A stretch of DNA of 64,000 nt from contig DAOVDU010000001.1 in the NCBI GenBank assembly GCA_030669305.1, positions 14,812 through 78,811 of the forward strand, given 5' to 3'. The stretch is from Candidatus Aminicenantes bacterium. GTDB taxonomy: Bacteria; Acidobacteriota; Aminicenantia; Aminicenantales; Aminicenantaceae. The translations under genes were made by a program, and so were the position numbers. The notes beneath the pieces were generated by a model. The model ran no database searches, was not told where the DNA came from, and was given only the letters and a program-made list of their open reading frames with translations. Below are positions 5,692-51,545 of this stretch, piece after piece. Within the stretch, counting starts at the first letter, position 1. Every line of letters begins with the position of its first letter.

Positions 5692-5692
5692 C

Positions 5693-6781: not shown

Positions 6782-6782
6782 A

Positions 6783-8150: not shown

Positions 8151-8154
8151 AGAT

Positions 8155-9267: not shown

Positions 9268-10364
9268 ATCGCAAAAAAATAATCATAAGTGGAGGTGGTA
9301 CTGCAGGCCATCTCTACCCTGCTCTAGTTGTAGGACAGAAATTGAAGGAAAAAGATCCTGATATTTCTCTCACTTTTGTGGGGAGCAGTCGTGGTTTAGA
9401 AAAAAAACTAATGAAACATTATAAGGCAAATTTCATTACCTTAAAAATTGAAGGAATAAAAGGAAAAGGTTTAAAAATCTTCAAATCTCTTTTTATTCTT
9501 CCCTATTCTTTCGTCAAATCACTGGCAATCTTGCTGAGAACAAAACCTCAACTTGTTATCGGGGTGGGAGGGTACAGTTCAGGTCCAATCGTCCTCCTTG
9601 CCTCCTGGATGAAAACACCTACTTTGATTATGGAACAAAACATCTGTCCCGGATTCACGAACAGGCTTCTTCTGCCATGGGTGCAGAAAGCTGCTGTCTC
9701 TTTTGAAGGTTCCCTTTCTTATTTCAGAGGAAAAGGAATATTCACAGGAAATCCTGTGAGAGAGGAATTTTATTCCCTCCCTCCCAAAGAAAAAAATAGC
9801 AAGCTGACTCTCTTTATTTTTGGTGGAAGCCAAGGATCACATTTTTTAAACAAAGGAATTGTTCTCTCTCTTCCAGTTTTAAAAAAAGAAAGGGGAACTT
9901 TAAGAATCTTTCATCAGACAGGCAAAAAGGATTTTGAATGGGTTAAAGAGAGTTACATGCAAAACGGATTTGAAGATGTGATTGTCAGCCCTTTCTTTTT
10001 CGATATGGCAGAATATTTCAAAAGATCAGATCTAATCATCAGCCGGGCCGGAGCAACAACCATAGCAGAGCTGATCGCTGCGCAAAAAGCCTCGTTACTG
10101 GTTCCTTTTGCAAAGGCAACAGACAATCACCAGGTCTTGAATGCCCGAGAATTAGAAAAAATGAATGCAACTGAAGTTATCACAGAAGAAAAGTTTACAC
10201 CCGAGCTTTTCACCGGCAAAATATTCCGTTATATGAAAGACAAGGAAAAGATAAACCAAATGGAAAAAAACTTGGCCCCCCTCAAGAAAGAAAAGATTTC
10301 AGAAAATATCGCGGACCTCTGTTTCGAACTCATGAAAACAAAACGTCAGGAGAAAATAATTTGA
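9264..10364 (+). CDS. murG: UDP-GlcNAc:lipid I GlcNAc transferase MurG
   Basis: N-terminal GGGTAGHLYPAL motif and GT28 architecture. Synteny. Confidence 0.9.
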   Translation: MNRKKIIISGGGTAGHLYPALVVGQKLKEKDPDISLTFVGSSRGLEKKLMKHYKANFITLKIEGIKGKGLKIFKSLFILPYSFVKSLAILLRTKPQLVIGVGGYSSGPIVLLASWMKTPTLIMEQNICPGFTNRLLLPWVQKAAVSFEGSLSYFRGKGIFTGNPVREEFYSLPPKEKNSKLTLFIFGGSQGSHFLNKGIVLSLPVLKKERGTLRIFHQTGKKDFEWVKESYMQNGFEDVIVSPFFFDMAEYFKRSDLIISRAGATTIAELIAAQKASLLVPFAKATDNHQVLNARELEKMNATEVITEEKFTPELFTGKIFRYMKDKEKINQMEKNLAPLKKEKISENIADLCFELMKTKRQEKII

Positions 10365-11749
10365 GGAAACAAGCTTCCAAGAAGCTCAAACACATCCACA
10401 TGATAGGAATCGGTGGCACTGGCATGAATGGAATCGCAGAGGTTCTGTTCAATCTCGGTTACAAAGTCTCAGGGACAGATATCAACGAAAACGAAGCCAC
10501 GCAACGACTTGTCAGCCTTGGGGTAGAAATATCAATCGGTCACAAGGCCGAAAAAGTAGAGGGAGCAGATGTTGTCGTCATCTCCTCTGCTATCAAAGAA
10601 GATAATGTAGAAGTAGGAGAAGCAAGGCGGCAGAAAATACCAGTTATACCGAGGGCAGAAATGCTGGCAGAATTGATGAGAATGAAATACGGAATCGCCG
10701 TAGCAGGTTCTCACGGAAAGACATCTACTACTTCAATGATTGCACAAGTCCTTGAGGTAGCCGGGTTTGATCCAACAATCATCGTCGGCGGTCGATTAAA
10801 TACAATCGGTGCTCATGCAAAATTGGGCGAAGGAGATTTCATCGTAGCTGAAGCCGATGAAAGCGACCGATCCTTTCTATATCTATCTCCTTTTATTGCA
10901 GTGCTTACTAACCTTGATGAAGAGCATCTGGACCAGTATAAATCTTTGGATGAAATCAAAAAAACATTTGTCAATTTTGCAAATAAAGTTCCTTTTTACT
11001 GTCCAATCGTCCTGTGTCTCGACGACTCCAACCTCCAAAGTCTGGTTCCATCGCTAGAGAGAAGGATTATCACTTATGGATTTTCTGCTCAAGCCGACAT
11101 ATTTGCCAGAGGTCAGCAGTTTGAAAAATTCTCAAGCATTTCAACCCTTTATTGGAAGGGAAAAAAATTGGGAAATTTAAACCTAAACGTCCCCGGCATT
11201 CACAGCATATATAATGCCATGGCAGCAGTAGCTGTGGGCATGGACTTGGACATTCCTGTATCGAATATTTTCCAGGCTCTGGAAAATTACAGGGGGATCG
11301 GTCGCCGCTTTGAACTAAAGAAAAAAATAAACAACATTATGGTTATAGAAGACTATGCCCATCATCCAACAGAAATTAAAACTACTCTTGATGCAGCAAA
11401 GAAAGGATGGCCTCGAAGGATTATAGCAATTTTCCAACCCCATCGATACTCACGTCTTTCTCTTCTCATGAAAAAATTCGGCACAGCATTCAACGAGGCA
11501 GATATTCTCATCATCACAGAAGTTTACCCTGCAGGGGAGAACCCGATAGCAGGTGTATCAGGAAAAGCTCTCTATAAGGAAATTCTGCAATTCGGACATA
11601 AAAATATCTATTTTGAACAGGATCTAAAAAAAATACCTTCAATAGTAGGAAAACTTGCTTTGCAAAAAGATATGATCATTGTCATGGGAGCAGGAAATAT
11701 CTCCAGGGTAATTCCTGGTATCATCGAAAGACTGGGAAGGAAAAAATAA
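10361..11749 (+). CDS. murC: UDP-MurNAc:L-alanine ligase MurC
   Basis: GIGGTGMNGIA and GSHGKTSTTSM motifs. Synteny. Confidence 0.9.
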   Translation: MRKQASKKLKHIHMIGIGGTGMNGIAEVLFNLGYKVSGTDINENEATQRLVSLGVEISIGHKAEKVEGADVVVISSAIKEDNVEVGEARRQKIPVIPRAEMLAELMRMKYGIAVAGSHGKTSTTSMIAQVLEVAGFDPTIIVGGRLNTIGAHAKLGEGDFIVAEADESDRSFLYLSPFIAVLTNLDEEHLDQYKSLDEIKKTFVNFANKVPFYCPIVLCLDDSNLQSLVPSLERRIITYGFSAQADIFARGQQFEKFSSISTLYWKGKKLGNLNLNVPGIHSIYNAMAAVAVGMDLDIPVSNIFQALENYRGIGRRFELKKKINNIMVIEDYAHHPTEIKTTLDAAKKGWPRRIIAIFQPHRYSRLSLLMKKFGTAFNEADILIITEVYPAGENPIAGVSGKALYKEILQFGHKNIYFEQDLKKIPSIVGKLALQKDMIIVMGAGNISRVIPGIIERLGRKK

Positions 11750-11751
11750 GT

Positions 11752-12612
11752 ATGGCCACTAATCTTAATCCAGCTTTCAAATACAGATCTAACATTCTCC
11801 TCTCCCGGCCCACGCATTTCAGACGAGGAAACGGAAAAATAAAAACTAAAAAAATCCAGAGGAAAATGAGGCTGAAACTTAAACATATTCTTTTCGCCTT
11901 TTTTCTTCTGGGCGGAATATTTTATTCTATCCAGCAATTCTATCTCTTCTTAATCTCATGGGACAAACTGAACGTCAAAGAGATAGAAGTCGTCTGCCGC
12001 AGACAAGAAATCAAAGAAGAAATTCAACAAATTCTAAAAGGAGAAAAACTAGGAAATATTCTTCTTCTGAATATCGGGCATCTCCAAGAAGGGTTGACTA
12101 AGCATAGATGGATCAAAGAGGTCCTGGTAAGGAAAAACTTTCCTTCTTCCTTAAGGATTGAACTCATTGAAAGAACTCCTTATGCACTCCTGAAAAAGGA
12201 AAAATTATTCCTTATCGATGCAGATGGAGTTCAACTTGAACAAATTTATCCAAATGAAAAAATGAACCTCCCTCTTCTTGTAGATTCAAACAATTTCGAG
12301 AAAGATTATGAAGAAAAACTAAAATTAGCATGGGAATGCCTTGAGGGTTTAAAATCCTCAGAGAAAAAACAGATCGATCTTTTAGATTTATCTGATTACG
12401 AAAATGTATCAATAAGGCTGAAAGAATCACAAACATGGCTTATCCTCGGCAATGATCAATATGCAGAGAAACTTCGATTATTCCGACAGATCAGTGCCAA
12501 GTTAGAGAAACAAGGAGCTTTAGAATATGTCGATCTTCGCTTCGAAGACCGTTTATACATCAAACCTATTAAAAATTTAAACGGAAATACCTTCAAGAAG
12601 GAGGCTAACTGA
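11752..12612 (+). CDS. ftsQ: cell division protein FtsQ/DivIB (POTRA domain)
   Basis: Single N-terminal TM then a POTRA-like region. Located between murC and ftsA. Confidence 0.75.
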   Translation: MATNLNPAFKYRSNILLSRPTHFRRGNGKIKTKKIQRKMRLKLKHILFAFFLLGGIFYSIQQFYLFLISWDKLNVKEIEVVCRRQEIKEEIQQILKGEKLGNILLLNIGHLQEGLTKHRWIKEVLVRKNFPSSLRIELIERTPYALLKKEKLFLIDADGVQLEQIYPNEKMNLPLLVDSNNFEKDYEEKLKLAWECLEGLKSSEKKQIDLLDLSDYENVSIRLKESQTWLILGNDQYAEKLRLFRQISAKLEKQGALEYVDLRFEDRLYIKPIKNLNGNTFKKEAN

Positions 12613-13835
12613 TGCCTAAAAACGATTATATTGTAGGATTTGACATCGGGACAAAAAAAGTGGCCGCAATTATCGGCGAAATCACTGAAGAGAAAAAAAT
12701 TGAGATTATTGGCATAGGTACAGCCGACTCCAGAGGCCTGAGAAAAGGAGTCGTTGTCAATTTAGACGCTACTGTAGATGCCATTAAAAAGGCTCAAGAA
12801 GAAGCTGAGCTTATGGCTGGAGTAGAAATTGATTCAGCCTATATTGGCATTTCCGGTGCTCATATAAAAAGCTTCAACAGTAGAGGAGTTATTGCTGTTT
12901 CTGGCAGAAATAAGGAGGTTAACCGCGAAGACATCAAACGCGTAATAGACCAGTCTAAAGCTGTATCTATCCCCCCTGATAGAGAAATCATTCATATAAT
13001 TCCTCAGGAATTTGTTGTTGATGATCAAGACGGCATCAAAGATCCTCTCGGTATGAGCGGGATAAAGCTTGAAGTGAATGTTCACATTGTCACGGGCGCT
13101 ATAACCTCTGTCCAAAATTTAAGAACTTGTGTCTCTCGGGCAGGCATTGAGATCGAACAAATAGTTCTCAACCAGATCGCAACAAGCGCATCTATCCTTA
13201 CCCACGACGAAATGGAGCTCGGAGTTGGATTAATTGATATCGGAGGGGGGACAACTGAAGTAGCCATTTTCGAACGAGGAAGTCTATGGTACACATCCGT
13301 GATCCCGATAGGAGGAGATAATTTTACAAATGATATAGCTGTCGGCCTCCGGACTCCTATCCCGGATGCAGAAAAAATAAAGAAAAAATACGGCTGTGTG
13401 TCCGGCCCCCTCACAAATGAACAGGAAACCATAGAAGTCCCTACAGTCGGACGTGGGAAAAAGCCGCGTGTTCTCTCCAGACAGTTATTAGCTGATATTA
13501 TCCAGCCAAGAGCAGAAGAAATCTTTCGCTTGGTCGATAATGACATCAAAAGGATGGGATATGAAAAATCCCTCAATTCAGGGATAGTTCTTACTGGAGG
13601 GACAGCATTACTGGAAGGCCTGGAAGAAGTGGCTGAGGAAACTTTTGATTTGCCTGTAAGGCGTGGCGATCCCAGCGGCATCGGTGGCTTAGTGGATAGA
13701 GTCAGCACTCCTGACTACGCCGCTGGAGTCGGCCTCATCTTATATGGATTTATTCAGTGTAAAGGAAAGGGTATATCTAAAGACAGAAAACAGGGCTTCT
13801 TGTCAAAACTAAAAGATTGGATTAAAGAGACATAG
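12612..13835 (+). CDS. ftsA: cell division protein FtsA (actin-like ATPase)
   Basis: VGFDIGTKKV phosphate-1 and DIGGGTTEV phosphate-2 actin-fold motifs. Immediately upstream of ftsZ. Confidence 0.92.
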   Translation: MPKNDYIVGFDIGTKKVAAIIGEITEEKKIEIIGIGTADSRGLRKGVVVNLDATVDAIKKAQEEAELMAGVEIDSAYIGISGAHIKSFNSRGVIAVSGRNKEVNREDIKRVIDQSKAVSIPPDREIIHIIPQEFVVDDQDGIKDPLGMSGIKLEVNVHIVTGAITSVQNLRTCVSRAGIEIEQIVLNQIATSASILTHDEMELGVGLIDIGGGTTEVAIFERGSLWYTSVIPIGGDNFTNDIAVGLRTPIPDAEKIKKKYGCVSGPLTNEQETIEVPTVGRGKKPRVLSRQLLADIIQPRAEEIFRLVDNDIKRMGYEKSLNSGIVLTGGTALLEGLEEVAEETFDLPVRRGDPSGIGGLVDRVSTPDYAAGVGLILYGFIQCKGKGISKDRKQGFLSKLKDWIKET

Positions 13836-13844
13836 GAGGGAAAA

Positions 13845-15056
13845 ATGACTGAGCAAATAAAAAGCAACTTAAAATTTCATTTAGTCGAAGAGCACATTGG
13901 CGCTAAAATCAAGGTTATCGGCATTGGCGGCGGGGGGGGAAACGCTACTAACAGGATGATAGAGACACAAATTGGAGGAGTAGAATTTATCGCCGTCAAT
14001 ACAGACCTCCAAGCGCTCAATGCCAACAAATCTGGAACAAAAATCCAGATCGGCAGCCAATTGACAAAAGGATTGGGGTCAGGAGGTAGACCTGACATTG
14101 GGAAAGAAGCTGCCATGGAAGATACGGAAAAATTGATCAAGGTCCTTGAAGGAGCGGATATGGTCTTTCTGACTACTGGACTCGGAGGCGGCACAGGTAC
14201 AGGAGCAATACCGATTCTAGCGAATCTTGCCTCAGAAATGGATATTTTGGCCATTGCCATCGTTACTCTTCCCTTTGAATTCGAAGGAAAAATTAGAGCA
14301 AAGCAAGCTGAAGAAGGCCTGAGCGAATTGAAATCTGCTGTTGACACAGTTATTTCCATTCCAAATGAACGGCTGCTAGAGACAGTAAATCTGGACACTT
14401 CAATTCAAGATGCTTTCAAAATGGCTGACGATATTTTGCGTCAGGCAGTCCAGGGAATATCCGATCTCATCACCAGACCAGGACTGATCAATCTAGACTT
14501 TGCTGACGTCAAATCTATTATGAAAGGTATGGGCATGGCTTTCATGGGGACAGGAATTGCCTCAGGAGAAAACAGGGCAGTCGATGCCGCCCATAAAGCT
14601 ATCTCCAGTCCGCTCCTTATAGACACCTCAATAGAGGGAGCACACGGAGTTCTCATCAACATAACAGGAGGCAAAGACATCACTCTTCACGAAGTTTCAA
14701 AGGCTTCCGAGCTTATCCACAGTATGGCACATCCAGAGGCCAACATCATTTTTGGCACAGTCATCGACGAAAGCATGAAAGAAATGGTTAAAGTCACTGT
14801 CATCGCTACAGGTTTTGACTTATCGTCAGAAAGGGAATCAGCCACTCCTGAAGAATTTGGGCCCCCTCGTCGAGAAAGCCCCCCCCCATTCCTGGCTCCA
14901 CAAGAGACACCTCCTTATATATTCGAACCAAAAGGAAGAGAAACTCTCTGGCAAAGGCCTGCGTGGGAAAAACAATGGGAACCCTATGAAACACCCTCTT
15001 TTATAAGAAGAAACAAACACACATCACTGAGGAAGTTTCCTCATGAAGCCAGCTGA
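13845..15056 (+). CDS. ftsZ: cell division GTPase FtsZ
   Basis: Tubulin signature GGGTGTG. NAT and NTD stretches. Pro-rich linker and C-terminal IPSFIRRNK peptide resembling the FtsA/ZipA-binding tail. Confidence 0.95.
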
Positions 15057-18236: not shown

Positions 18237-19757
18237 TCAAAAATACTTATCCATCATTCGGTACTGGATAGCTTCGGAAATATGAACAGGGCTGATATTC
18301 TCTTCTCCATTTAAATCTGCAATCGTCCTGGCGACTTTTAAAACTCGAGTATAAGCTCTGGCACTGAACCCCAGCTTGTCGACAGCCATTTCTAAAAGTT
18401 CTTTTCCTTCGTCATCAACCTGACAGTACTTTTTAACCTCTTTTGTTCCCATTTGGGCATTACTGTATATTTTTCTCCCCTTGAACCTTTGAAGCTGCCT
18501 TTCCCGGGCATTGATAACTCTCTTTCTTATCTCAATTGAGCTCTCCCCTTCAAATTTGGAAATAATGTCCTTGAATTCTACCCTAGGCACGTCAACTTGA
18601 ATATCAATACGGTCGAGCAAAGGACCGGATACCTTCGAGTAATAACGGCCTCTCTGGGCGTCGGTACATTCAAAATCCGCTGAAGAAAGCCCGTAATAGG
18701 CATCTTCGCAGGGATTCATGGCAGCAACAAGCATAATGGAGGTAGGAAAAGTCACGGCCATAGAAGCGCGAGAAATAGTAACTTTTCTATCTTCCAAAGG
18801 CTGCCTTAAATCCTCAAGAACATGTTTTCGGAATTCAGGAAGTTCATCCAGAAACAATACTCCATTGTTAGCCAAGGAAACTTCTCCGGGTTTTGGAATA
18901 GTTCCTCCTCCTATTAAACCGGCATATGAAATTGTGTGATGAGGAGCTCGAAACGGTCTCTCACTGATAGCTCCTTTATCCTTTAATAATCCCGAAACGC
19001 TGTATATTTGGGTCGCTTCAATGATTTCCTCAAAAGTCATAGGCGGCAATATCGTAGGTAATCTTCTGGCCAGCATGGTTTTTCCTGCTCCAGGGGGACC
19101 GATTAAAAGGACATTATGGAAGCCTGCCGCTGCAACTTCCAGGGCTCGTTTGACATGCTGCTGCCCCTTAATTTCCTGAAAATCCAAATCACAGTCAGGC
19201 TGAGGCAGAAGTTCCTGTAAAGTACATATGCTAGGAGCTACAGATTCAGGGCAGTTAAGCAATTGTATAACCTGCACTAAATTTTCCAAGGCATAGATAT
19301 CCATATCCTGCACCAGTGCTGCTTCTTTTAAATTCTCCTTAGGAACAACAATTCCCTGAAAGCCCTTTTTTTTAGCAAGAACAGTGGAGGAAAGGATACC
19401 TTTTCCTGGCTTTAATTTCCCGTCCAAAGCCAATTCACCTAAAAATAAAAACTCGCGGAGTCTTTCTTCAGGAAACAAGTCTAAATGAGCTAGGAAACCT
19501 AGAGAGATAGGAAGATCAAAAGCTGAGCCTTCCTTTTTCCTATCTGCAGGAGCTAAATTGATGATGATTTTCCGTGAAGGAAATTTATATCCACAATTCT
19601 TCAGCGCCGCTCTCACTCTTTCTCTGCTTTCCCGCACTGAAGCATCAGGAAGTCCTACAATGACAAAACCAGGGAATCCAAAAGATATATCAACTTCAAC
19701 ATCAACAATATAGGCCTCGATTCCTATCAAAGAGGCACTGGCGATTTTAAAAAGCAT
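18237..19757 (-). CDS. comM: YifB/ComM family Mg-chelatase-like AAA+ ATPase
   Basis: N-terminal Lon-like domain (GIEAYIVDVEVDIS). Walker A GPPGAGKTM. C-terminal ComM helix-turn-helix region. Full-length homology to YifB. Confidence 0.85.
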   Translation of the reverse strand: MLFKIASASLIGIEAYIVDVEVDISFGFPGFVIVGLPDASVRESRERVRAALKNCGYKFPSRKIIINLAPADRKKEGSAFDLPISLGFLAHLDLFPEERLREFLFLGELALDGKLKPGKGILSSTVLAKKKGFQGIVVPKENLKEAALVQDMDIYALENLVQVIQLLNCPESVAPSICTLQELLPQPDCDLDFQEIKGQQHVKRALEVAAAGFHNVLLIGPPGAGKTMLARRLPTILPPMTFEEIIEATQIYSVSGLLKDKGAISERPFRAPHHTISYAGLIGGGTIPKPGEVSLANNGVLFLDELPEFRKHVLEDLRQPLEDRKVTISRASMAVTFPTSIMLVAAMNPCEDAYYGLSSADFECTDAQRGRYYSKVSGPLLDRIDIQVDVPRVEFKDIISKFEGESSIEIRKRVINARERQLQRFKGRKIYSNAQMGTKEVKKYCQVDDEGKELLEMAVDKLGFSARAYTRVLKVARTIADLNGEENISPVHISEAIQYRMMDKYF

Positions 19758-19851: not shown

Positions 19852-20655
19852 CTATTTTTTCGGGGATCCTGTAAAATCTTGAGCTAAACTATCTATCTCA
19901 TTCTCAATATCCCTCTGGGATTTGAATTTTACTTTTGTAATTTTAATAGGAGCAATTTTCTCTTTATATGCAAACTCTATTTCTTCTTTCTTTTCTTTTT
20001 TTTCTTCTTTTTTTATTTCTGGTTTTTCTCTTTCTTCCGGCTTTTCTTCCGGCTTTCTCTTTTCTCCAAAGATTTTTTCTCTCACTATAGGGACAGTTAA
20101 CTTTGCAATCTCTCTTAAAGACTCAAAAACTCCTACTCCATTAATGGCACTGGACTCAATATGGGGAAGCCCTCGTGGGTTTAGCAGATTATTAAAGGTT
20201 TCTACTGGAATGAGATTCTCTAAATCACGCTTGTTGTATTGGAAAACAAGAGGAACAAAATTTAAATCCACGTTTTGTTCAAGAAAATTTTTCCTCAAGC
20301 CATCAAAGTTCTCCAAATTTGCATCGACAAGAGGAATCTGAGAATCAGCAACAAAAATAACACCATCTGCTCCTTTAAGCACACTTTTTCTAGAGGCTTC
20401 ATAAAAAACCTGGCCTGGGACAGTCATGAGTTGAAAATGAATCTTGAAGTCTCGGATCATACCTGCTTTTATGGGTAACAAATCAAAAAAAATAGTCCTT
20501 TCTATATCCGTCTCAAGACAGATTAAATCACCCCGCGAATCCTCGTCCATTTTGCTGTAGATAAAGCGTAGGTTTGTTGTTTTGCCGCTTAGACCAGGCC
20601 CGTAATAAATAATTTTTATGGCCAAGTTTTTGGTCGTATAATTTATATATGCCAT
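19852..20655 (-). CDS. mglA: MglA-family Ras-like small GTPase with a ~70-aa Lys/Glu-rich C-terminal extension
   Basis: KIIYYGPGLSGKTTNLRFIY, TVPGQVFYEASRK and QYNKRDL align near-colinearly with Myxococcus MglA as I recall it. Tail EEKPEEREKPEIKKEEKKEKKEE. Confidence 0.8.
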   Translation of the reverse strand: MAYINYTTKNLAIKIIYYGPGLSGKTTNLRFIYSKMDEDSRGDLICLETDIERTIFFDLLPIKAGMIRDFKIHFQLMTVPGQVFYEASRKSVLKGADGVIFVADSQIPLVDANLENFDGLRKNFLEQNVDLNFVPLVFQYNKRDLENLIPVETFNNLLNPRGLPHIESSAINGVGVFESLREIAKLTVPIVREKIFGEKRKPEEKPEEREKPEIKKEEKKEKKEEIEFAYKEKIAPIKITKVKFKSQRDIENEIDSLAQDFTGSPKK

Positions 20656-20805
20656 CTGCCTCTAAATTCTCACATCACCTGAGACAATTCTTAACATAAT
20701 CCTTGAACAGAGTCAAATCTTTTCCTTTTTCCTTACTTTTGCTTTCTCTCATCTCCCATTTATGTGGAAGAATACAATTGAGTCCGTTTAGTCCATTTCA
20801 ATAAT

Positions 20806-21984
20806 TTAGTCGGTTTCGTCCATTAAATATCCAAAGAGGTGGGAATACTTTTCAACAACCCTGGACCAGGAATAATTTTCCTGGACATATTTCAGGCCAT
20901 TCTCTCCCATGATTCTTCTTAACTTTGAATCAGACAGGAAAAGATCCAAAACACTTTCAAACTCTTTATAATCGGAGTAGCACAAACCGCTTTTTCCCTC
21001 AAGACAATGCTGTTTGAGAGGGTCGGTTTTTTCTTGGACTAAAACAGGCGTCTGGGCTGCCATCGACTCTAAAGCTGCCATGCATAAGCTTTCAAGATGA
21101 GAAGGATGGACAGTCACACAGGCAGAAGCCATGGCACTATTTTTTTCCTCAGGAGGAAGAAAACCAAGATATTTTATTCTAGGATAAGAAGGTAAATCCA
21201 TTAAAAGCTTTCCGATCAGGATAAGTGTCAAATCAGGACTTTTTCTGCTGTATCTAAGGAAATAATCGACGAGTTCTTGACAGCCTTTTCCTGGTTCTAT
21301 ACGGCCTGCATAAAGGATAAAAGGAAGCATAATCCCATGTTTTTTACAAAAATCAGGACTCCCTAGGTTTTTTGGAATCTCTACTCCAACACCTACAATA
21401 TCCTGGTATTTGTGTTCAAAAGAAAACAGACGGCTGAGCATTTGCTTTTCTGATGCTGTATTAAACATGAAAGCTTTAGGAGTAGAAAATACCTCTTTCA
21501 TGATATCTAGGTGTAAAGCGGGCTCATCATGAGCTGTGGGAACAAGGGCTTTTTTTTCTTTAATTCTTTGGAGCCCCCAGTAAGTATTGTAATACAGGTA
21601 GGTAAAAAAGATGAAAATGTCGTGGTCTTTCTCTTCTCTCTCTAATGTTTCAACAAGAGCGGGACAACAAGGCCCTTGCCTTTCCATCCATTCTATCTCA
21701 TCTTCACGCGTATGTTCATGAAAGAAAATCCAATCAGAATACTTGTTAAACGAATCAATGTCTCTCTCTTTTTCCACTCTAAAGCGTTTAATAACAACTC
21801 CATTAAGAATAGACTCACCAGGAGAATACTCATTTTTCCATGTGATGTAATCTTTAGCTGCTGTTGTATAGACCGTACAGTCATATCCTGCGTCGACTAA
21901 TTTTTCTGCAATCTGGCGGCAGTGAAGCTCAGAACCTCCCATGACTTCGCTGCCATACCGCTGGACTACAAAGGCTATTCGCAT
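20806..21984 (-). CDS. GT4-family glycosyltransferase (type A; paralog of 24186..25361)
   Basis: N-terminal [23 protein letters not shown] Glyco_trans_4-like domain and C-terminal GT1 domain. About 45% identity by eye to the ORF at 24186. Confidence 0.75.
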
Positions 21985-22060
21985 ACTATCTCCAAATCTA
22001 AAGAATTCAAGAGTCAGAATCCAGAATCCTAAAAAATTTTTTAATTCTGTATTCTGAATT

Positions 22061-23122
22061 CTATATTCTATTAATCATTTGAAGCAAAAATTTCTCTCTT
22101 TCCATCTCCTTAAACTTCTTCAACCTTCGGCGCTGTCCTTCAATTATCCCTTCCCTCAACTTCATATCATTAGCCACAATATTGACCAGTTCTCCGACAT
22201 AATCCTTTCTCTTATTCTTGATCAACACACCTGCTCCTCCTAATGTATAGGGAACAGCTGTACAATCATAGGCAATAATGGGTAGGTCAAAAATCATACT
22301 CTCGATAAAAGGGAGCCCAAATCCCTCATGTTCACTTAACGAAAGAAACAAGTTTGAAGCTTTGTAAATGGCAAACATTTCCTCATCAGAAATATGTCCT
22401 GTAAAACAAATTTCCTCTGGCTTTAAATAAAACTCATCTGCGAGGGTAACTAAACTCTTGTAATATTTGGGAAGGGATGCGATTTTACCGACTATAATCA
22501 GCCTTACTAGGGGAGAGATATATTTTTTGTAGTAAAAAATAACCTTGATAAGATCATCAATCCTCTTATTGGGCGCAACCCTCCCCACAAAAAGAATATT
22601 GGTTCTATCATCTTTAAAGAGATTGTACATAAGACGACTCATTGGTTTTTTGTACTTTTTAAAATCAACAAAAAGAGGAAAAATTTTAGCTTTTTTAAAG
22701 CCAATATTAAGAAGTTCCTGGCGATTAAACTCGGAATCAGCTAAAGCTAATGCAACTTTAGGGGCCAGCGATACGAGTTCCTCCCTGCCAATTCGGGAAA
22801 TTCTGACCATTTCCTGGCTAAAATCCTTAAAAAATCCATGTGGTGTGAGGTTATGATATATCATCGTTTTTCCGCTGGGGAGGCTGGCAAAAGCATGGGT
22901 TAAAGGAGAGGGCAGAGCAAAATGTAAAATAGTAACATCCGAAGGAGAAGGCTTCGGGAAAGAAGAAAAAATTTTCGACTCTTCCTCCAGGCCTCTATCT
23001 CGTGTTAAACAGTATATCTCAGATTGAAAACCCTGAGATAAAAAAAATCTTTTCATATGAAAGGCTGTATCTCCTATGGCATCACCCCAATGAAACGCAG
23101 GAACAAGCTGGTCTACTCTCAT
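22061..23122 (-). CDS. GT4-family glycosyltransferase (type B; paralog of 23119..24186)
   Basis: EX7E-type motif [24 protein letters not shown] donor-binding region. Confidence 0.75.
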
Positions 23123-24186
23123 CCTATGCTCACCCGTTCTATATGATTGAGCAGGGTCCGGCCTACATTTTCCCTCTTGTATTTCTCCAGAGCCTTGAGC
23201 TGAGATGAAATCACATCTTTTCTGAAGGCTTCATCTCTGTTCAGTATATCCAATAGAACCGCTGTCTTGAAAAAATCTTTTTCACGAAGGAGGATTCCTC
23301 CGCTATTCATAGTCTCCTCCACCGCGCCAGCCGCATAGGCAACAACAGGAATTTTCATATAAAAAGACTCTAAAAGAGGAACTCCAAATCCTTCATGCTC
23401 ACTCATGCTCAAATAGACATGAGCAAGCCTGAAATATGCGATAAGTTCAGAAAATTCAACATGCCCTGTAAAATGAACATCATTCAATTCCAATCTTTCC
23501 ACTAAATCCCGGAGAACAGCAAAATACCGTTCCATCCCTCTAAAATCTCCGGCCAAAATGAGCTGAGAATTTGGATTGAAATATTTTTTATAGAAATAAA
23601 AGGTCTTAATAACATCCTCAAACTTTTTGTTAGGAATCATGCGTCCCACGAAAAGAATGGTCCATTTTCCATTGGAAAAAAGTTTCTGAACGACAGGGTC
23701 TCCTTCCTGGTCAAATTTTGAAAAATTCAAAAGAAGAGGCTGCACACCTGTATTGGTATATCCAAACACCTCAAGTTCTTTTCGGTTAAATTCTGAATCT
23801 CCGAGGGCCAAATCAACTTTATCTATAAAAAGCTTGATCTCCAGACGTCCTTTATAGCACTCCCTGGCCAGAATCCTGTGATAGTCCAAGAAAAACTCAT
23901 AGGGTGTGATATTGTGATAAATCATGATTCTCCTGTCTGGAATGCGAAAAAACATCTTGGATACAGGCGATCCGATGGAAAAATGAAATATGACCACATT
24001 TTGGGGAGAGCTAATTTTTTTATACTCCCTGTAATCTCTCATGTATTTGGCCATCTTTGGCTCATAGAACCGGATGAATATCTCAGATTTATATCCTTTT
24101 TCTTTGAGAACTTTTTGTATTTCAAGCATTTCATCGGAGATTGCATCCCCATAAGTCAAGGAAGTCGCAAATTGATGAATTTCCAC
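23119..24186 (-). CDS. GT4-family glycosyltransferase (type B')
   Basis: SEHEGFGVPLLESF and FVGRMIPNKK. 4-nt overlap with the downstream GT. Confidence 0.75.
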   Translation of the reverse strand: MEIHQFATSLTYGDAISDEMLEIQKVLKEKGYKSEIFIRFYEPKMAKYMRDYREYKKISSPQNVVIFHFSIGSPVSKMFFRIPDRRIMIYHNITPYEFFLDYHRILARECYKGRLEIKLFIDKVDLALGDSEFNRKELEVFGYTNTGVQPLLLNFSKFDQEGDPVVQKLFSNGKWTILFVGRMIPNKKFEDVIKTFYFYKKYFNPNSQLILAGDFRGMERYFAVLRDLVERLELNDVHFTGHVEFSELIAYFRLAHVYLSMSEHEGFGVPLLESFYMKIPVVAYAAGAVEETMNSGGILLREKDFFKTAVLLDILNRDEAFRKDVISSQLKALEKYKRENVGRTLLNHIERVSIG

Positions 24187-25361
24187 TATTTTTCCTTTTC
24201 AAGCTGGTCAAGGATTGAAAGATACTTATTCTCGATAACTTCCCATGTATAATTCTGTCTGAAGTACTCCTGGCCGTTTTTCCCCATCGCCTCACAAAGT
24301 CCAGGCGATGAGATGAGAAGCCCCAAGGCTTCTCTAAACTCTTCATAATTTTCATAGAAGAGACCAGCGTTGCTCCGCATACACTGTCCTTTTAGCACTT
24401 CGCATCGGGCATTAGCCAAGACTGGGATCCGCAAGGCCCAGGCTTCGAGAGTAACCATGGAAAGGCTTTCATAGAATGAGGGCATCATTAAAAGCAACGC
24501 CCCTTCAAGAGCAGAAAACTTATCTTCCTCTGATAAAAATCCAAGATAGGCTATATCAGAATGGGAAGGAATCTTCAATTTGTTGCTACCGACCAAGACC
24601 AGTTTTATATCAGAGCCAATTTCATCTTTAAACCTGAGAAAACAATCAAAAAGCTTATGGCATCCTTTGTTCTTATCAATCCTTCCTATATAGATAATGT
24701 AATCTCCTCCAATCTGGTATTTTCGGCGAAATCCTTCCGAGGAAAACTGTGAAGGGATCTCTGTTCCCACTCCAATAATATCCCCTAGTACATCCATATT
24801 CTGGGAGAGAGAATTTATCATATTCTTTTCTTCTACAGAATTGTAGATTATAGCGCGCGGCTTTCTGAATAAATCTTTGAAGATTTTAAGGTAAATTACA
24901 GGGTCATGCTCCGCTGTAGGTACCAGGATGCTCTTTTGGGGCAAAGAGTTTATTCCGCAGTACGAATGGTAATAGCGGTAGCTGAAAAAAATAAAATAAT
25001 CATAATCATTCTGGTGTTCATTTATGTACTTAATTAACGAAGGAGAGTAAGGGCCTTCTTCCTCCAGCCACTTCAGTTCGTCCTCGAGTCTATGCTCATT
25101 TTCCAGGATGTAATTCTGGATGCGGCCAAACCTCTTCGGGTCCCTTGTTCGAGTCACTGAAAACCTTTTTACAGGAATGCCGTTAATAACCTCTTCTCCC
25201 CTAGGATAATGATCTTTCCATGTGATATAGTCAAAAGCCTTTGTTGTTAACACCTCGACTTCAAAGTATTTCTTCATATGTTCGGCTACCCAGCGGCAGT
25301 GTAACTCTGCACCTCCGCTTATTTCTAAACCATATCTTTGGACGACAAAAGCTAATTTCAT
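24186..25361 (-). CDS. GT4-family glycosyltransferase (type A')
   Basis: [23 protein letters not shown]. Colinear with the ORF at 20806. Confidence 0.75.
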   Translation of the reverse strand: MKLAFVVQRYGLEISGGAELHCRWVAEHMKKYFEVEVLTTKAFDYITWKDHYPRGEEVINGIPVKRFSVTRTRDPKRFGRIQNYILENEHRLEDELKWLEEEGPYSPSLIKYINEHQNDYDYFIFFSYRYYHSYCGINSLPQKSILVPTAEHDPVIYLKIFKDLFRKPRAIIYNSVEEKNMINSLSQNMDVLGDIIGVGTEIPSQFSSEGFRRKYQIGGDYIIYIGRIDKNKGCHKLFDCFLRFKDEIGSDIKLVLVGSNKLKIPSHSDIAYLGFLSEEDKFSALEGALLLMMPSFYESLSMVTLEAWALRIPVLANARCEVLKGQCMRSNAGLFYENYEEFREALGLLISSPGLCEAMGKNGQEYFRQNYTWEVIENKYLSILDQLEKEK

Positions 25362-26041
25362 TTGAAAATCTCTTTCTCTATTGCTTTTTCTTTTCTTCCC
25401 AAAAACTCAAAATCTTTTTCCATGATTCGAATCTTAACCTTCAGGTTCTCCTGTTCGATCTTTAATTTGGTGAGTTCAACCACAATATTGTGAGAAAGAC
25501 TATGAAGAAGTTTAGTGTACTCCAAAGCTTTATTCAGGCCTTCGAAAGCAAGGTCTACTCTCTTGTTTGTTGCCTGATTGAGATGATCCAGTTTTTCATG
25601 AATTTTACCAAGCTCACCCTCCAGTTTTTCATTCAATAAATCCAATCTTCTGTTTGTCTGATCAAAATTGTTTTGTGTTTCCTGATGGACAGGGAATATC
25701 ATAACCTTAATAAGAGGGGAAAATGGCTTCATGACTCTCAGCAACAACTTCTTTACTTTTGCTTTTGTTCCAGAGGGTTCCTCGGGTCCAGCAGGAGACG
25801 GACCAAAAGAAGAGTAGAATGCCTCATTTTTTAGATCGCCTTCTGCCGCCTTTATTGGCTGTGTAGCAATTTTTCTTTTGATCTGATCCATAATATCAGC
25901 GACATCGATATTGTCGTAGTCTATGTTTATTTCTTCTTTTTTTATGAATTTCTTTTGTTCTTTTTTGTCTGTCATAAAATACTCCTCTATTTCTTTATTC
26001 TTCCTTTTTAAACAGAAAGTCTTCATAAACACTCTGGACAT
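25358..26041 (-). CDS. coiled-coil protein of unknown function (first genes of the GT operon)
   Basis: Open reading frame with a long heptad-rich C-terminal half (LDLLNEKLEGELGKIHEKLDHLN...). No enzymatic motifs. The start is uncertain, with alternative Mets at residues 6 and 23. Confidence 0.45.
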   Translation of the reverse strand: MSRVFMKTFCLKRKNKEIEEYFMTDKKEQKKFIKKEEINIDYDNIDVADIMDQIKRKIATQPIKAAEGDLKNEAFYSSFGPSPAGPEEPSGTKAKVKKLLLRVMKPFSPLIKVMIFPVHQETQNNFDQTNRRLDLLNEKLEGELGKIHEKLDHLNQATNKRVDLAFEGLNKALEYTKLLHSLSHNIVVELTKLKIEQENLKVKIRIMEKDFEFLGRKEKAIEKEIFK

Positions 26042-26243
26042 CCTGGATATCAGGAAGAGGATGAAGCTTCATCTCCTCGATTTCTTGTATCTCTTTTTCA
26101 GTAAAGATTCCTTCTTTCTTTTTCTTTGCGATTAATTCTTTAATCTCTTCCATAATCCTATCTTGATCTTCTTTCTTAATGCTCTTTATCTCTAAAAAAT
26201 CAGCCATTTTGTTCACCCTCTTGTTAGATTCGCGTACATTCAC
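25995..26243 (-). CDS. small acidic Lys/Glu-rich protein (82 aa), hypothetical
   Basis: ORF only. It overlaps the next gene by about 47 nt. Low-complexity charged sequence. Confidence 0.3.
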   Translation of the reverse strand: MNVRESNKRVNKMADFLEIKSIKKEDQDRIMEEIKELIAKKKKEGIFTEKEIQEIEEMKLHPLPDIQDVQSVYEDFLFKKEE

Positions 26244-26306
26244 TTTTCAGTTATTTATTTTAAAAAAAACAACAAAATAAAAGCAAACCACCATTCAATC
26301 TTTAAA

Positions 26307-26420
26307 GTTAATCTGTTAGTCGGTTAGTCTGTTAGTCGGTTATTTTAATTAAAATATTCAACTGACTAACTGATCAACAGTCTAACTGTCTAACTGACAA
26401 ACTGTCTAACTGACTAACAG
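26307..26420. repeat. octamer-array hairpin element (CNGTTARW arrays in inverted orientation around palindromic AT core TATTTTAATTAAAATA)
   Basis: CTGTTAGTCGGTTAGTCTGTTAGTCGGTTA, then the AT core, then ACTGACTAACTGATCAACAGTCTAACTGTCTAACTGAC... read directly. Confidence 0.8.
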
Positions 26421-26426
26421 AAATTT

Positions 26427-28433
26427 TTAACGAATATATCCTAAGGCTTTCAACTGTTCTAATAATTCCTCATCGATCTCAGGCCTGGATATTTTTCTCT
26501 TCTTTGCCTTGCTGTAGATTTCATTAATTTGCTGGATTATCTGGTTGACAAGCACGGATTTTTTATCAGCTATGTTCTTTCTTTCTATCGAATCTTGTTT
26601 TAAATCATAAAGTTCTATAGGTTTTAAAGCAGGAGGGGCATAGAGAAAAAAATCCAGATCTTTCATACTGAATTTTTTATTGAGAATGAGTTTGTCTTTT
26701 CCCATATTCATGGAGATTTTCCGTGGAATGCGGGAATTCAAAATATTACTTCCTATGTCCGCTAAAAATTTTCTATCTCCTTTCTCTTTTCCTTCTATCA
26801 CAGGAAATAAACTCCTGCCGTCAATGTTCAAATCAGAAAAATCTATCCCCATCTCCTCCAAGATGGTCGGCATGACATCTACAAGAGAGACAATATTTCC
26901 GATCTCTTTCCCTTTAAATTTTGATCCTGGGAATTTAATGACAAGTGGAACTTTCAGAGATTCATCATAAAGACTATGCCCATGTCCCCAGCCCTTATGA
27001 TCATAAAACTCCTCGCCATGGTCACTGGTAAATATGATCATCGTCTGGTCATAAAGCTCCATCTCTTTAAGCTTCCCTATAAGAGGCCCTATAAGTTTTT
27101 CATCTGTATAGCGGATTTCTCCATCATATAGGTCGATGATATTCTGGCGTTCTTCCTCAGGAAGTCTCTTAAACAAACCTGGCTTCCCACCCAGGTAACT
27201 GACTAAATCTATGTGTCTCCATTTAGCTCCTTCCTTAGTAAACATCGTTTTATAGGGATAAGGACAGGCATAAGGGTTATGAGTCTGATAAGTATGGAGA
27301 AAAAGAAAAAAATTCTTATTTTTCTCTCTGTCAAGCCATTCTGAAACAACACGAAATAAAAGTTCAGCTGAATCCTGCTGAAAAACTCCCCCTACTCCAT
27401 CACGATATGTATCAAAGCCTTTGGAGAATCCATAAACAGAGCTGACAAATCCTCCTCCCGTAAAAGAAGAACAAAATAAATGATTCTGCCGTAAAATATC
27501 AGCCAGGGTGAGGACAGCAGGGTCCATTTTCTCTCTGTCATAATAGACTTGATGATGAACTCCATGCAATGAGGTTAAAAGCGAGACATGAGAAGGGAGG
27601 GTCCATGGCGAAGAAGCATATGTATTAAGGAACAAAGCACTGTCTGAAGCTAGGGAATCAATGTTAGGGCTCGTGTCTCTATTATATCCATAACAACCTA
27701 AGTGATCAGCCCTGAGAGTATCAATAGAAATAAGGATAATATTACGAAGGCTTCTTTCTTTCCTGTACAGGACTGGATTATACCAAAAGGAAAAATTATG
27801 TTCTCCACCTTCTGTAACAAGCGACAACTCTACTTCTTCCTGAGTATAAGGAACGTCGATACAATGCCTGGAAAAAGAATGTTTTTCATCCTTGTCAGGA
27901 AATGGAAGGTGTTTTTGGAAAATTGTCTTTTTTCTTCCTTTTGTTTCAAAGGAGATTAAAAAAGTAGCGCCTCTTTCTTTGTTCCCAGTAGATTTGATAA
28001 GTTCTTCTGAATTTTCATCCCTGACATTGCCAATACCAAATTCTAATAAGGAATTCTCTGGAATATTAAGGCTGAAAGTGAATTTACTCTTTGGAGGAGA
28101 AAAAAGCACATTTATCTCTGCTCCACCAAGTTTTAATTTCCTCTTTATTCCAAAAGGATTATCTCCAGAACCTAAGTCCAGGATCTGGTGAGACTTTAAA
28201 GGGAAATACCTATTCGATTCTCCCGATTCTTTGGAAATTTGAATCAGCGGTGAATGAATAATATTTTCTTTATCAAGATTATCAATTAATCTATAGAGTT
28301 TAAATTCGGACAAAGGAGATTTTGCGCAATTACTTAGAAAAAACAAGGGAAATAGGAAAATAAGAGCCTTTTTTTTCATAAACATCGAGTTACTGCCAAT
28401 TGGCATTTTAATTGATTTAATCTCTGTGTTCAA
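26427..28433 (-). CDS. alkaline-phosphatase-superfamily (sulfatase-fold) lipoprotein with Thr/His in place of the FGly Cys/Arg
   Basis: DTLRADHLGCYGY metal-binding motif. The nucleophile region is TLPSHVSLLTS instead of C-x-P-x-R-x-S-L-L-T-G. Signal peptide MKKKALIFLFPLFFLSNC, with the likely true start about 18 codons inside the ORF. Confidence 0.7.
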   Translation of the reverse strand: MNTEIKSIKMPIGSNSMFMKKKALIFLFPLFFLSNCAKSPLSEFKLYRLIDNLDKENIIHSPLIQISKESGESNRYFPLKSHQILDLGSGDNPFGIKRKLKLGGAEINVLFSPPKSKFTFSLNIPENSLLEFGIGNVRDENSEELIKSTGNKERGATFLISFETKGRKKTIFQKHLPFPDKDEKHSFSRHCIDVPYTQEEVELSLVTEGGEHNFSFWYNPVLYRKERSLRNIILISIDTLRADHLGCYGYNRDTSPNIDSLASDSALFLNTYASSPWTLPSHVSLLTSLHGVHHQVYYDREKMDPAVLTLADILRQNHLFCSSFTGGGFVSSVYGFSKGFDTYRDGVGGVFQQDSAELLFRVVSEWLDREKNKNFFLFLHTYQTHNPYACPYPYKTMFTKEGAKWRHIDLVSYLGGKPGLFKRLPEEERQNIIDLYDGEIRYTDEKLIGPLIGKLKEMELYDQTMIIFTSDHGEEFYDHKGWGHGHSLYDESLKVPLVIKFPGSKFKGKEIGNIVSLVDVMPTILEEMGIDFSDLNIDGRSLFPVIEGKEKGDRKFLADIGSNILNSRIPRKISMNMGKDKLILNKKFSMKDLDFFLYAPPALKPIELYDLKQDSIERKNIADKKSVLVNQIIQQINEIYSKAKKRKISRPEIDEELLEQLKALGYIR

Positions 28434-32166: not shown

Positions 32167-32553
32167 CTATTCCAGCCAAACCTTCACTACTTCGTCGTCT
32201 TCGTAGACTTCAACCAGCACCATCGGACCGAGTTTTTTAAGCTCCGCAAAAATCTCCTTGAGGTCAATATCATAGTCATCACAATCGATTCTCAGATTCT
32301 TATCAGGGCTACATTTGATAAAAATATCAACTAATGAAATTGGAAGTGTAATCCGGACTTTATCTTTTTTCGTGCGGGTATCTGTAACAAGGACCTTGAA
32401 CCACTTCACTTCTGTCCCAGCCTTATACTCGGGATTATTCTTGACAGCCTTCTTGATCGCCTGAATGTTATCCTTGCGCTCGGCCAAGAGAAAGCTCATC
32501 AGAAAAAGGGTCAAAGTGAACACGACTAACACAATAATTGCAGCTTTTTTCAT
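32167..32553 (-). CDS. small secreted protein (128 aa) sharing a C-terminal module with the upstream TPR/HEAT protein
   Basis: Signal/TM MKKAAIIVLVVFTLTLFLMSFLLA. Its C-terminus DLKEIFAELKKLGPMVLVEVYEDDEVVKVWLE parallels DLDKIVKELMEFRGKIIEIKTEKSIIKIWID of the ORF at 32566. Confidence 0.5.
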   Translation of the reverse strand: MKKAAIIVLVVFTLTLFLMSFLLAERKDNIQAIKKAVKNNPEYKAGTEVKWFKVLVTDTRTKKDKVRITLPISLVDIFIKCSPDKNLRIDCDDYDIDLKEIFAELKKLGPMVLVEVYEDDEVVKVWLE

Positions 32554-35205: not shown

Positions 35206-36492
35206 TTAGCCGTATTTCATCCACTTCACAATTTCTTTAAAATTCGGGCGTTTTCCGTACATCAAGATTCCCACCCTGTAGATTTTTGCAGTAATCCAGA
35301 TCATCAGAAGTGTGGTCAGGACGAGTAGCACGATTGAACCCGCGATTTGAGTGAAAGGAGGGAGCAGGACACAAATGCGCAGGAGCATTAAAATCGGAGC
35401 GAAAAAGGGAATCATGGATAAAACTACAGAGAAAGAGCTGTTTGGGCTTTTCATCACAAACAACATAAGCAGTATTGGGACAATTAGAAACATTGTCACT
35501 GGCATAACTAAACTCTGAGCTTCTTTTTCCGAGTTCACCATCGACCCGATGGCAGCATAAAGGGTTGCATAAAGAAAATATCCGAGAATAAAGAATATGA
35601 CAAAATAGATGAAAATATAAGACGGAATGGTCGGCACCTCAAACGCAGCAGCCGCAGGGAAAAACCTTAAAATCAAGTCTTTGCTGTACTGCGAAACAGC
35701 AAGTCCAAAGAGGGCCCAGATTGCATACTGTGTAAATCCCACAGCAGCAATTCCCACAATTTTTCCGGTCATGAGCTGAAAAGGCTTTAGAGAAGAAAGG
35801 ACAATCTCGACGACCCTCGAACTTTTCTCTTCAATAACACCTCTCAAGATTATCTGGCCATAAAATATAAGCGTCATGTAGAGGATAAGCACTAATAAAT
35901 AAGAAATGATAAAGGTTCCTCCTGTGTCCTTTTCTACTCCTCTCTTTGTCACTTTTTTGGTCGTTAATTTCACAGGACGCATATATTCGCCTATTTTTTG
36001 GGGATCTAATCCTTCTCCCCTTAACCTTTTCCCGATGATAATGCTGCTTAAAGCCTGGTTGATGTTTCCCCTCTTGTCAAAATCAGATACATGCTCCGAG
36101 ACATATTCAGCCTCTCCTCCTTCTGAGATATCTTTGGGAATAAAAATATAGGCAGAAAGTTCTTTATTGAGGACTTTTTTGTTTAACTCCTGGAGAAGCT
36201 CCTCAATATTGGCAGAAGGCCTAAACTCTTCCAGGAGATATCTACGGGTCCCATCCTTAAGTTTTTGATCCAGTTTATTATCAAGTTCCATAAAAACTTC
36301 TCGAGTTTTATCTATAACACCAATACGTTCCTGTTGGTCAACAGAAATAAACTGGATAGCAACAGGGACTACGATAAAGGCCGCCATGACTACAGGGCCT
36401 AAAATTGTCCCAATTATAAAGCCTTTAGTCCGGATAATCTGAATATATTCTCTTTTAATGACTGACAGTATCTTGTGCATTTTTTTCTCCAA
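35206..36492 (-). CDS. ABC-2 family transporter permease (NatB-like)
   Basis: N-terminal TM, a large extracytoplasmic loop, then 5 C-terminal TMs. Coupled to the upstream ATPase. Confidence 0.75.
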   Translation of the reverse strand: MEKKMHKILSVIKREYIQIIRTKGFIIGTILGPVVMAAFIVVPVAIQFISVDQQERIGVIDKTREVFMELDNKLDQKLKDGTRRYLLEEFRPSANIEELLQELNKKVLNKELSAYIFIPKDISEGGEAEYVSEHVSDFDKRGNINQALSSIIIGKRLRGEGLDPQKIGEYMRPVKLTTKKVTKRGVEKDTGGTFIISYLLVLILYMTLIFYGQIILRGVIEEKSSRVVEIVLSSLKPFQLMTGKIVGIAAVGFTQYAIWALFGLAVSQYSKDLILRFFPAAAAFEVPTIPSYIFIYFVIFFILGYFLYATLYAAIGSMVNSEKEAQSLVMPVTMFLIVPILLMLFVMKSPNSSFSVVLSMIPFFAPILMLLRICVLLPPFTQIAGSIVLLVLTTLLMIWITAKIYRVGILMYGKRPNFKEIVKWMKYG

Positions 36493-49884: not shown

Positions 49885-49887
49885 ACA

Positions 49888-51544: not shown

Positions 51545-51545
51545 T

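Follow-up and report, generated by a model that had tools for sequence, protein, structure and literature searches.

The window considered here is a contig stretch of 64 kb (64,000 nucleotides) from a Candidatus Aminicenantes bacterium. In it, a cassette of genes for two helical proteins and four family 4 glycosyltransferases (GT4) is followed on the same strand by mglA, the gene of a Ras-like GTPase. An earlier note on this DNA had read these genes as one operon that couples MglA to the glycosyltransferases (GTs). Our comparison with related loci, which carry labels beginning with L, points to another arrangement. With a probability of about 0.65, a conserved and self-contained operon of coiled-coil (CC) and GT4 genes lies upstream of an independently promoted orphan mglA, as two separate genetic units side by side. 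Evidence against the single operon comes from a promoter that mglA appears to have of its own, from 18 loci that lack the cassette, from three loci in which the junction between cassette and mglA is broken and from cassettes that occur without mglA elsewhere. The features concerned are the following, in coordinates of the window.

26427..28433, minus strand: sulfatase/alkaline-phosphatase-superfamily protein of 668 amino acids (Pfam Sulfatase, 3.1e-45) with a lipoprotein-like signal peptide
25995..26243, minus strand: CC82, small charged helical protein (open reading frame; likely start 26207, giving 70 amino acids as in the gene call in L002)
25358..26041, minus strand: CC227, long-helix coiled-coil-like protein (open reading frame; likely start 25975, giving 205 amino acids)
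24186..25361, minus strand: GTA2, A-type GT4 (PF00534, 6.5e-18)
23119..24186, minus strand: GTB2, B-type GT4 (PF00534, 2.1e-21)
22061..23122, minus strand: GTB1, B-type GT4 (PF00534, 5.5e-23)
20806..21984, minus strand: GTA1, A-type GT4, last gene of the cassette (PF00534, 6.1e-20)
20687..20716, minus strand: putative sigma-70-type mglA promoter (consensus-like match and conservation upstream of mglA)
19852..20655, minus strand: mglA, Group 1 Ras-like GTPase (core 1-189) with a 78-amino-acid tail (E 5.5e-66 to 5ymx)
18237..19757, minus strand: yifB, Mg-chelatase-like AAA+ ATPase (TIGR00368, 1.8e-192)

The open reading frame (ORF) listing of the window reproduced the seven minus-strand ORFs from CC82 to mglA at the coordinates reported earlier. 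Spacing is tight from CC227 through GTB1. Neighbouring ORFs overlap by 4 nt at 25358-25361, by 1 nt at 24186 and by 4 nt at 23119-23122; the last of these values had been given correctly, and the first two had been swapped. The description of overlaps or very short gaps throughout does not hold, as the gap is 76 nt between GTB1 and GTA1 and 150 nt between GTA1 and mglA. With the starts of public gene calls (70 and 205 amino acids), the small ORFs of CC82 and CC227 do not overlap and lie 19 nt apart. The run was also said to end at mglA. In fact, same-strand genes continue through yifB, an aldo-keto reductase gene and the gene of a GCAxxG protein to 16603. Upstream, the co-directional run starts with the sulfatase-family gene at 26427-28433, and as a whole it extends from 28433 to 16603.

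In the 150-nt gap ahead of mglA we found a -35 element TTGACT (20716-20711), a 17-nt spacer with TG at 20696-20695 and a -10 element TAAGAA (20693-20688) that ends 33 nt ahead of the ATG at 20655. By itself this site is an unremarkable match to the consensus. To place it in context, we used a scan with MglA over one genome per species, which yielded 80 loci. About 58 of them belong to Candidatus Aminicenantes (Acidobacteriota), and the others to Vicinamibacteria, Thermoanaerobaculia and further Acidobacteriota; promoter and adjacency counts refer to the 56 Aminicenantes loci that were scored. The pattern TTGAY-N12-14-NRTGNTA was matched within 120 nt upstream of mglA at 42 of these 56 loci; the background rate of such matches is 0.0034 per 120 nt. 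Near-variants that are one position off are seen at most of the remaining loci. Matches were observed where the upstream gene is GTA1 (22/32), where it is a divergent SLOG gene (14/18) and where it is another gene (6/6). The promoter thus stands in the same place with or without the cassette, which suggests that mglA is transcribed on its own from a conserved, predicted sigma-70-type promoter. A single operon that includes mglA is not supported, in view of the 150-nt gap with its conserved promoter and of a gene order that is not kept where both partners occur.

Loci without the cassette provide the next line of evidence. In 18 Aminicenantes loci (L020, L028, L031, L033, L035, L038-41, L044, L046-48, L050, L052, L055, L057 and L061), TruA-SLOG abuts mglA-yifB and no GT genes are present. 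Among these is the nearest relative of the window, L057; Saccharicenans MAGs also count among the cassette-less relatives. Two further loci, L053 and L054, carry TruA with no SLOG match there. In a neighbour-joining tree of YifB, the cassette-bearing loci form the deepest and most numerous branches, and the cassette-less loci fall into at least three nested groups, one of them with L057. Given this pattern, the simplest reading is that the adjacency is ancestral and the cassette was lost several times, with mglA-yifB staying in place. Lineages with no cassette at this locus retain an intact mglA with the same C-terminal tail. Where both partners are present, the junction can be interrupted. 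In L021, cassette and mglA are 7.2 kb apart, and the interval encodes a SnoaL-like protein, an S15 peptidase, a ferredoxin and an aldehyde:ferredoxin oxidoreductase. The interruption measures 1.6 kb in L049, where it contains an ORF on the opposite strand, and 3.6 kb in L155.

Conversely, the cassette is found away from mglA. At L173 and L174 (GC 66%, 1.8-Mb contig), genes for STAS, UbiA and CC proteins are followed by four GT4 genes. Their products match GTA2 (51%), GTB2 (42%), GTB1 (41%) and GTA1 (42%) of the window in that order, and each is closer to its positional counterpart in the window than to its paralog. This cassette is followed by a convergent gene for an NtrC-type regulator, and no MglA match was observed within 10 kb on either side. 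L167 has the order DUF362, CC, A2, B2, B1, A1, and L169, L175 and L176 are similar. Cassettes without mglA were also seen in L169 and in loci of 56-59% identity among L139-L165; simple ORF calls for L142, L147 and L149 (71-74% GC) proved unreliable and were left out. At L166, L168, L170-172 and L177 we observed a minimal pair, consisting of CC and one B2-like GT4. The earlier note had described the four GT genes as ordered A'-B'-B-A and not as a simple tandem duplicate. The same A2-B2-B1-A1 order recurs in the high-GC lineages. Because the ordered cassette recurs without mglA, its ‘mirrored’ order is an old inherited operon design of four distinct orthologous groups that is independent of mglA. 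A recent local duplication as the source of this order was discarded, as each gene fits its 66%-GC counterpart better than its paralog.

The surroundings of the cassette vary in these lineages. At 64-68% GC, the genes ahead of the full cassette are those for STAS and a UbiA-family prenyltransferase (L173-L175), for STAS only (L176) or for DUF362 (L167, L169). With UbiA as a neighbour, there is a hint that the acceptor is a lipid or is prenyl-linked. In L170, L171 and L172 (GC 67%), the minimal pair of CC and B2-like GT4 stands directly after a cluster of T2SSF, T2SSE(MshEN), four small genes, a secretin and an HU gene, and is followed downstream by ThiI and a methyltransferase.

A related module approaches mglA from the other side in Vicinamibacteria-like genomes. 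On the opposite strand and convergent to mglA, it comprises a lipoprotein, a CC protein of 173 amino acids (CC173) and two A-type GT4 enzymes with 44-49% identity to GTA2. This arrangement was seen in L064, L071, L077 and L082, and in L077 the stop codons of module and mglA are only 4 nt apart. By profile comparison the CC proteins are homologous, with an hhalign probability of 95% for the C-terminal 33 residues. When metagenomes were scanned with the L077 GT, 33 loci showed the convergent arrangement of module and mglA, at 68-100% identity to the query. In loci of 56-59% identity (CC173-GTAb-GTAa), the module is present and no MglA was found within up to 10 kb, and a few loci of the closer group (L114, L118, L124) likewise have no mglA beside the module.

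The identity of the four enzymes was examined with Pfam profiles, the check that the earlier note had proposed. All four GTs scored 65-82 bits against Glycos_transf_1 (cut-off 26.4), the C-terminal domain, in agreement with their description as GT4 enzymes. The two paralogous pairs also proved correct. GTA1 and GTA2 share 41% identity over their full length (E 3e-115) and GTB1 and GTB2 share 34% (E 3e-79); between A and B types, identity is 24% and confined to the C-terminal domain. The motifs quoted earlier (QRYGxExxGGxELHCR, SEHEGFG and FVGRxxPNK) are present. In the translations, an E-x7-E motif can be read in the GT4 proteins, for example EGFGVPLLE in the B type and ESLSMVTLE in the A type. 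For the N-terminal GT-B domain, GTA1 gave a sub-threshold match to PF13439 (19.7 bits, cut-off 28.5) and the other three gave no match. Scores against NCBIfam equivalogs were far below the cut-offs for all four, so no substrate can be assigned, and the proteins are best regarded from their sequences as GT4 enzymes of unassigned specificity. The nearest solved structures are MshA (3c4q), PimA (2gej) and sucrose-phosphate synthase (6kih). They share with the cassette GTs the C-terminal nucleotide-sugar-binding domain and the E-x7-E motif, and the likeness is weak (E ~1e-7) and restricted to that domain. The homologous proteins retrieved with GTA1 and CC227 were all close orthologs from Aminicenantes and bore the names ‘glycosyltransferase family 4’ or ‘hypothetical’.

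Two wider roles for the enzymes were considered and set aside. In a Pfam and NCBIfam search of 19852-28433, no gene for a flippase, polymerase, ABC transporter, export protein or initiating (phosphoglycosyl) transferase was found. The nearest ABC-2 transporter pair is located at 35206-37375, with unrelated genes between it and the cassette. A locus for a surface polysaccharide that depends on Wzx/Wzy or on an ABC transporter was rejected for this reason, as its marker genes were not found in that interval. An anti-phage defence or GT4-conflict system was dropped because no PADLOC model matched; PF20706 reached 17-19 bits (cut-off 26).

For the helical proteins CC82 and CC227, no Pfam, NCBIfam or PDB relatives were detected, and the matches returned, Mediator and haemagglutinin HA2 among them, were coiled-coil noise. 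AlphaFold2 modelled the 205-amino-acid CC227 with a short helix at the N-terminus, then a disordered linker and finally a continuous helix over residues 86-204 at a pLDDT of 80-98. The earlier term ‘coiled-coil’ is therefore reasonable for this protein. A profile of the CC227 family retrieved 190 clusters among 1.84 billion representative proteins, all members being at most 375 amino acids long, without fused domains and without a consistent Pfam match. In relatives with a single gene, the N-terminal region aligns with the CC82 motif IMEEIKELIAKKKKEGIFTEKEIQEIEEMKL (tblastn E 1e-9 to 4e-6; hhalign probability 58%). The CC82-like N-terminal motif VDVxxIMxQIRxRIxEKRGxDYTExEIxELA and the CC227 C-terminal motif HNLVVExTRLxIE stand together on one protein in distant members; such single-protein relatives were noted at L168, L170-172 and L177. 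As both motifs are joined in these relatives, CC82 and CC227 represent the split or duplicated form of one ancestral gene. Every distant member for which downstream sequence is available is followed by a GT4-homologous gene, in most cases directly. This ties the CC protein to GT4 and not to MglA, and marks CC227 as a probable dedicated partner of GT4 genes.

A long coiled-coil protein that holds and controls a GT4 polymerase is known from E. coli O9a O-antigen synthesis, where WbdD plays this part for WbdA. By analogy only, the cassette resembles this pair in that GT4 enzymes are encoded together with a long coiled-coil protein which possibly tethers or organises them. On the other hand, CC82 and CC227 lack the kinase and methyltransferase domains of WbdD and show no detectable sequence similarity to it, and neither an ABC transporter nor an initiating transferase is encoded in the cassette, in contrast to the WbdA/WbdD pathway. 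A WbdD-like regulator of chain length was rejected, given that CC82 and CC227 matched nothing in Pfam, NCBIfam or PDB and that their relatives are short proteins with no fused domain.

The sulfatase-family gene stands ahead of CC82 at 14 of the 24 loci that bear the cassette and is missing in others. In some loci it is separated from the CC82-homologous region by only ~3-13 nt, and its position makes it a candidate optional first gene of the cassette. By eye, the protein encoded at 26427-28433 has TLPSH where true sulfatases have C/S-x-P-x-R. This points to a threonine as the nucleophile, which is the situation in alkaline-phosphatase-superfamily phosphotransferases and phosphodiesterases, and away from a formylglycine sulfatase.

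Turning to the second unit, the mglA product aligned over residues 1-189 with M. xanthus MglA (5ymx; E 5.5e-66, 54% identity, no gaps) and with T. thermophilus MglA (3t12; E 2.1e-57). From the alignment to the M. xanthus protein, the P-loop GPGLSGKT is at residues 19-26 and the G4 motif NKRD at 141-144. The arginine finger R53 is conserved beside the G2 threonine T54, and the G3 motif T78-V-P-G-Q82 has threonine in place of the aspartate of Ras and keeps the catalytic glutamine. These marks, including the intrinsic arginine finger, are those by which Wuichet and Sogaard-Andersen (2014; PMC4316618) defined Group 1 MglA, and we assign the ORF at 19852-20655 from its motifs as a genuine Group 1 MglA. 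The earlier label of a near-full-length MglA ortholog was thus right about the family and wrong about the length. The core is complete, and a K/E-rich tail of 78 amino acids is added at the C-terminus (residues 190-267; window 19852-20085). The same P-loop, R53/T54, TVPGQ and NKxD are found in the Group 1 MglA proteins of M. xanthus and T. thermophilus (5ymx, 6h17, 3t12), in which the extension is absent; the window protein also differs in its usual genomic neighbour, which is yifB and not mglB. A C-terminal extension occurs in nearly all acidobacterial MglA proteins of our set (L006-L085), with a median protein length of 270 amino acids and a maximum of 522, compared with ~195 in the model MglA proteins. 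Near its end the tail carries a motif of approximately TKxKxxSxxDIExELExLxxEF that is conserved across Acidobacteriota. In a lineage without an adjacent MglB, the tail could serve for localisation or regulation.

We searched for MglB with the M. xanthus protein (100% identical to PDB 6h5b_B) by phmmer against all six-frame ORFs of at least 50 amino acids. No match at E<10 was observed in the window or within 10 kb in 165 related loci (85 genome loci and 80 metagenome loci), with the limit that highly divergent Roadblock proteins could escape a single-sequence query. The statement in the earlier note that the operon has no MglB/roadblock partner agrees with this result, and a coupled MglA/MglB module, with a Roadblock/LC7 gene within four genes of mglA, was rejected. 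Orphan MglA proteins are known: 59 of 449 MglA proteins have no adjacent MglB, among them Bdellovibrio MglA and SofG, and Group 1, which has listed members in Acidobacteria, shows highly variable gene neighbourhoods (PMC4316618). The window protein resembles the MglA of Bdellovibrio bacteriovorus and M. xanthus SofG in the lack of an adjacent MglB gene, and it seems to be nearer to MglA proper than we would expect of a SofG-like paralog. In most Aminicenantes loci with enough sequence, yifB is downstream of mglA, with or without the cassette. In Vicinamibacteria and Thermoanaerobaculia the two genes are ~2-10 kb apart, a pairing that is steadier than that of GT and mglA genes.

We propose that the first unit is a packed operon of CC82, CC227, GTA2, GTB2, GTB1 and GTA1 (26243 to 20806), led in some lineages by the sulfatase-family lipoprotein gene, and that it is a single copy of an ancient self-contained module which occurs across several bacterial lineages. 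Its four GT4 enzymes, presumably retaining and of the GT-B fold, would act in sequence on the cytoplasmic side, assembling on an acceptor a defined oligosaccharide or glycoconjugate. The long-helix protein, here divided over two genes, may serve them as a dedicated scaffold or membrane adaptor. In the second unit, the predicted promoter within the 150-nt gap would drive mglA, which is probably transcribed together with yifB or just before it. The product of mglA would be an orphan Group 1 GTP/GDP switch with an intrinsic arginine finger. Judging from its counterparts in Myxococcus, Thermus and Bdellovibrio, this switch most likely determines the polarity of the type IV pilus machinery, for which the window also carries pilMNOPQ. 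Within Aminicenantes, the adjacency of the two units would have been inherited, lost several times and not needed for the retention of mglA.

Several observations weigh against this separation. The earlier note had raised the conservation of the gene neighbourhood and a promoter or terminator between 20655 and 20806 as points to examine. The adjacency of GT and mglA genes is kept in 32 of the 56 Aminicenantes loci at just 57-77% protein identity, including the deepest YifB branches, and against this stand the 18 loci without the cassette and the three broken junctions. In the gap, the promoter was found and a terminator-like site was not: no terminator-like hairpin was detected at 20656-20805 in a scan that covers canonical intrinsic terminators only. 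It is therefore conceivable that transcription of the GT operon runs on into mglA. The argument for the mglA promoter is one of sequence conservation, and the YifB tree from which the relationships of the loci were taken is a quick one without support values. An alternative is a single long transcription unit with an internal promoter, in which the GT operon reads through into mglA-yifB and raises the dosage of mglA without a direct link between the proteins. In favour of it, no terminator-like site was detected in the gap, the genes from 28433 to 16603 are all co-directional, and the RNA fold of the GTA1-mglA gap is no more stable than that of shuffled sequences (z = +1.26), for which reason we propose neither an attenuator nor a terminator there. 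However, a gap of 150 nt stands in contrast to the overlaps of 1-4 nt inside the cassette, insertions at the junction are tolerated in L021, L049 and L155, and the terminator scan would have missed sites of other kinds. We regard such a unit as unlikely.

A functional coupling would go further. MglA-GTP could recruit or activate the CC/GT4 complex at one pole, leading to a spatially controlled surface glycan or ‘slime’. Besides the retained adjacency and the missing terminator, this idea draws on the module having reached mglA twice, in different orientations and in two acidobacterial classes, which would appear to be more than expected by chance; the L064, L071, L077 and L082 loci and the 33 metagenome loci belong here. 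The recurrence could stem from an ancient block of synteny, as mglA and yifB lie close together in these classes too, or from a real functional tie. A pilus-related theme is hinted at by L170-172, where the minimal pair of CC and B-type GT comes right after the T2SSF/T2SSE/secretin cluster. Long-helix adaptors are typical MglA effectors in Myxococcus. Against the coupling stand the conserved promoter of mglA itself, the retention of mglA with the same tail where the cassette is absent from the locus, and the complete cassettes of several lineages without mglA within 10 kb. The cassette also lacks the genes for export, flippase, polymerase or initiating transferase that mark a surface polysaccharide pathway. 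In the literature we found no paper on a coupling between MglA and glycosyltransferases, in line with the earlier note, which had known of none, and nothing relevant on motility in Aminicenantes. We consider the coupling quite improbable. The same low standing is given to its stronger wording, that an orphan, tail-bearing MglA directly controls the place of a cytoplasmic four-enzyme GT4 assembly line organised by an undescribed long-helix family. That reading is kept alive because the CC/GT4 module adjoins mglA in two acidobacterial classes and in two orientations. Two separate units, one for the cassette and one for mglA, remain the arrangement that we prefer.

The wider window has an ordinary chromosomal setting, as judged from the division and cell-wall cluster at 1080-15056 (ftsI, murE, murF, mraY, murD, ftsW, murG, murC, ftsA, ftsZ). 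A locus identical to that of the cassette and mglA is present in the Logan runs SRR26080959-64. The pilMNOPQ operon noted earlier is present: pilM, pilN, pilO and pilQ were identified at 48805-53906, and the gene in the pilP position (51083-51544) has no Pfam match. The operon is followed by two genes without clear families at 53919-55361. An ORF of 812 amino acids (44467-46905, plus strand) and one of 128 amino acids (32167-32553, minus strand) matched no Pfam family at the thresholds used. An Rfam search over the whole window found no RNA family.

The novelty of the finding is modest, as the members of both units are of known kinds; the family of helical partners and the tail-bearing orphan MglA are worth following. 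More generally, co-directional genes without a visible terminator can be separate units, and a comparison of the junction across relatives reveals this quickly. Such a comparison avoids labelling the mglA of Aminicenantes as a member of a glycan operon. If MglA-steered GT4 assembly were nevertheless true, a bacterial Ras-like polarity GTPase would for the first time have been found to steer glycan synthesis. In Acidobacteriota, MglA is usually an orphan, bears a tail and stands beside yifB, which bears on how MglA is regulated without a nearby MglB. The comparison also defines a compact, conserved module of one long-helix protein and one to four GT4 enzymes in the fixed order A2-B2-B1-A1. With a helical partner for which there is no Pfam family, this module is a reasonable target for studies of envelope glycoconjugates in uncultured Acidobacteriota.

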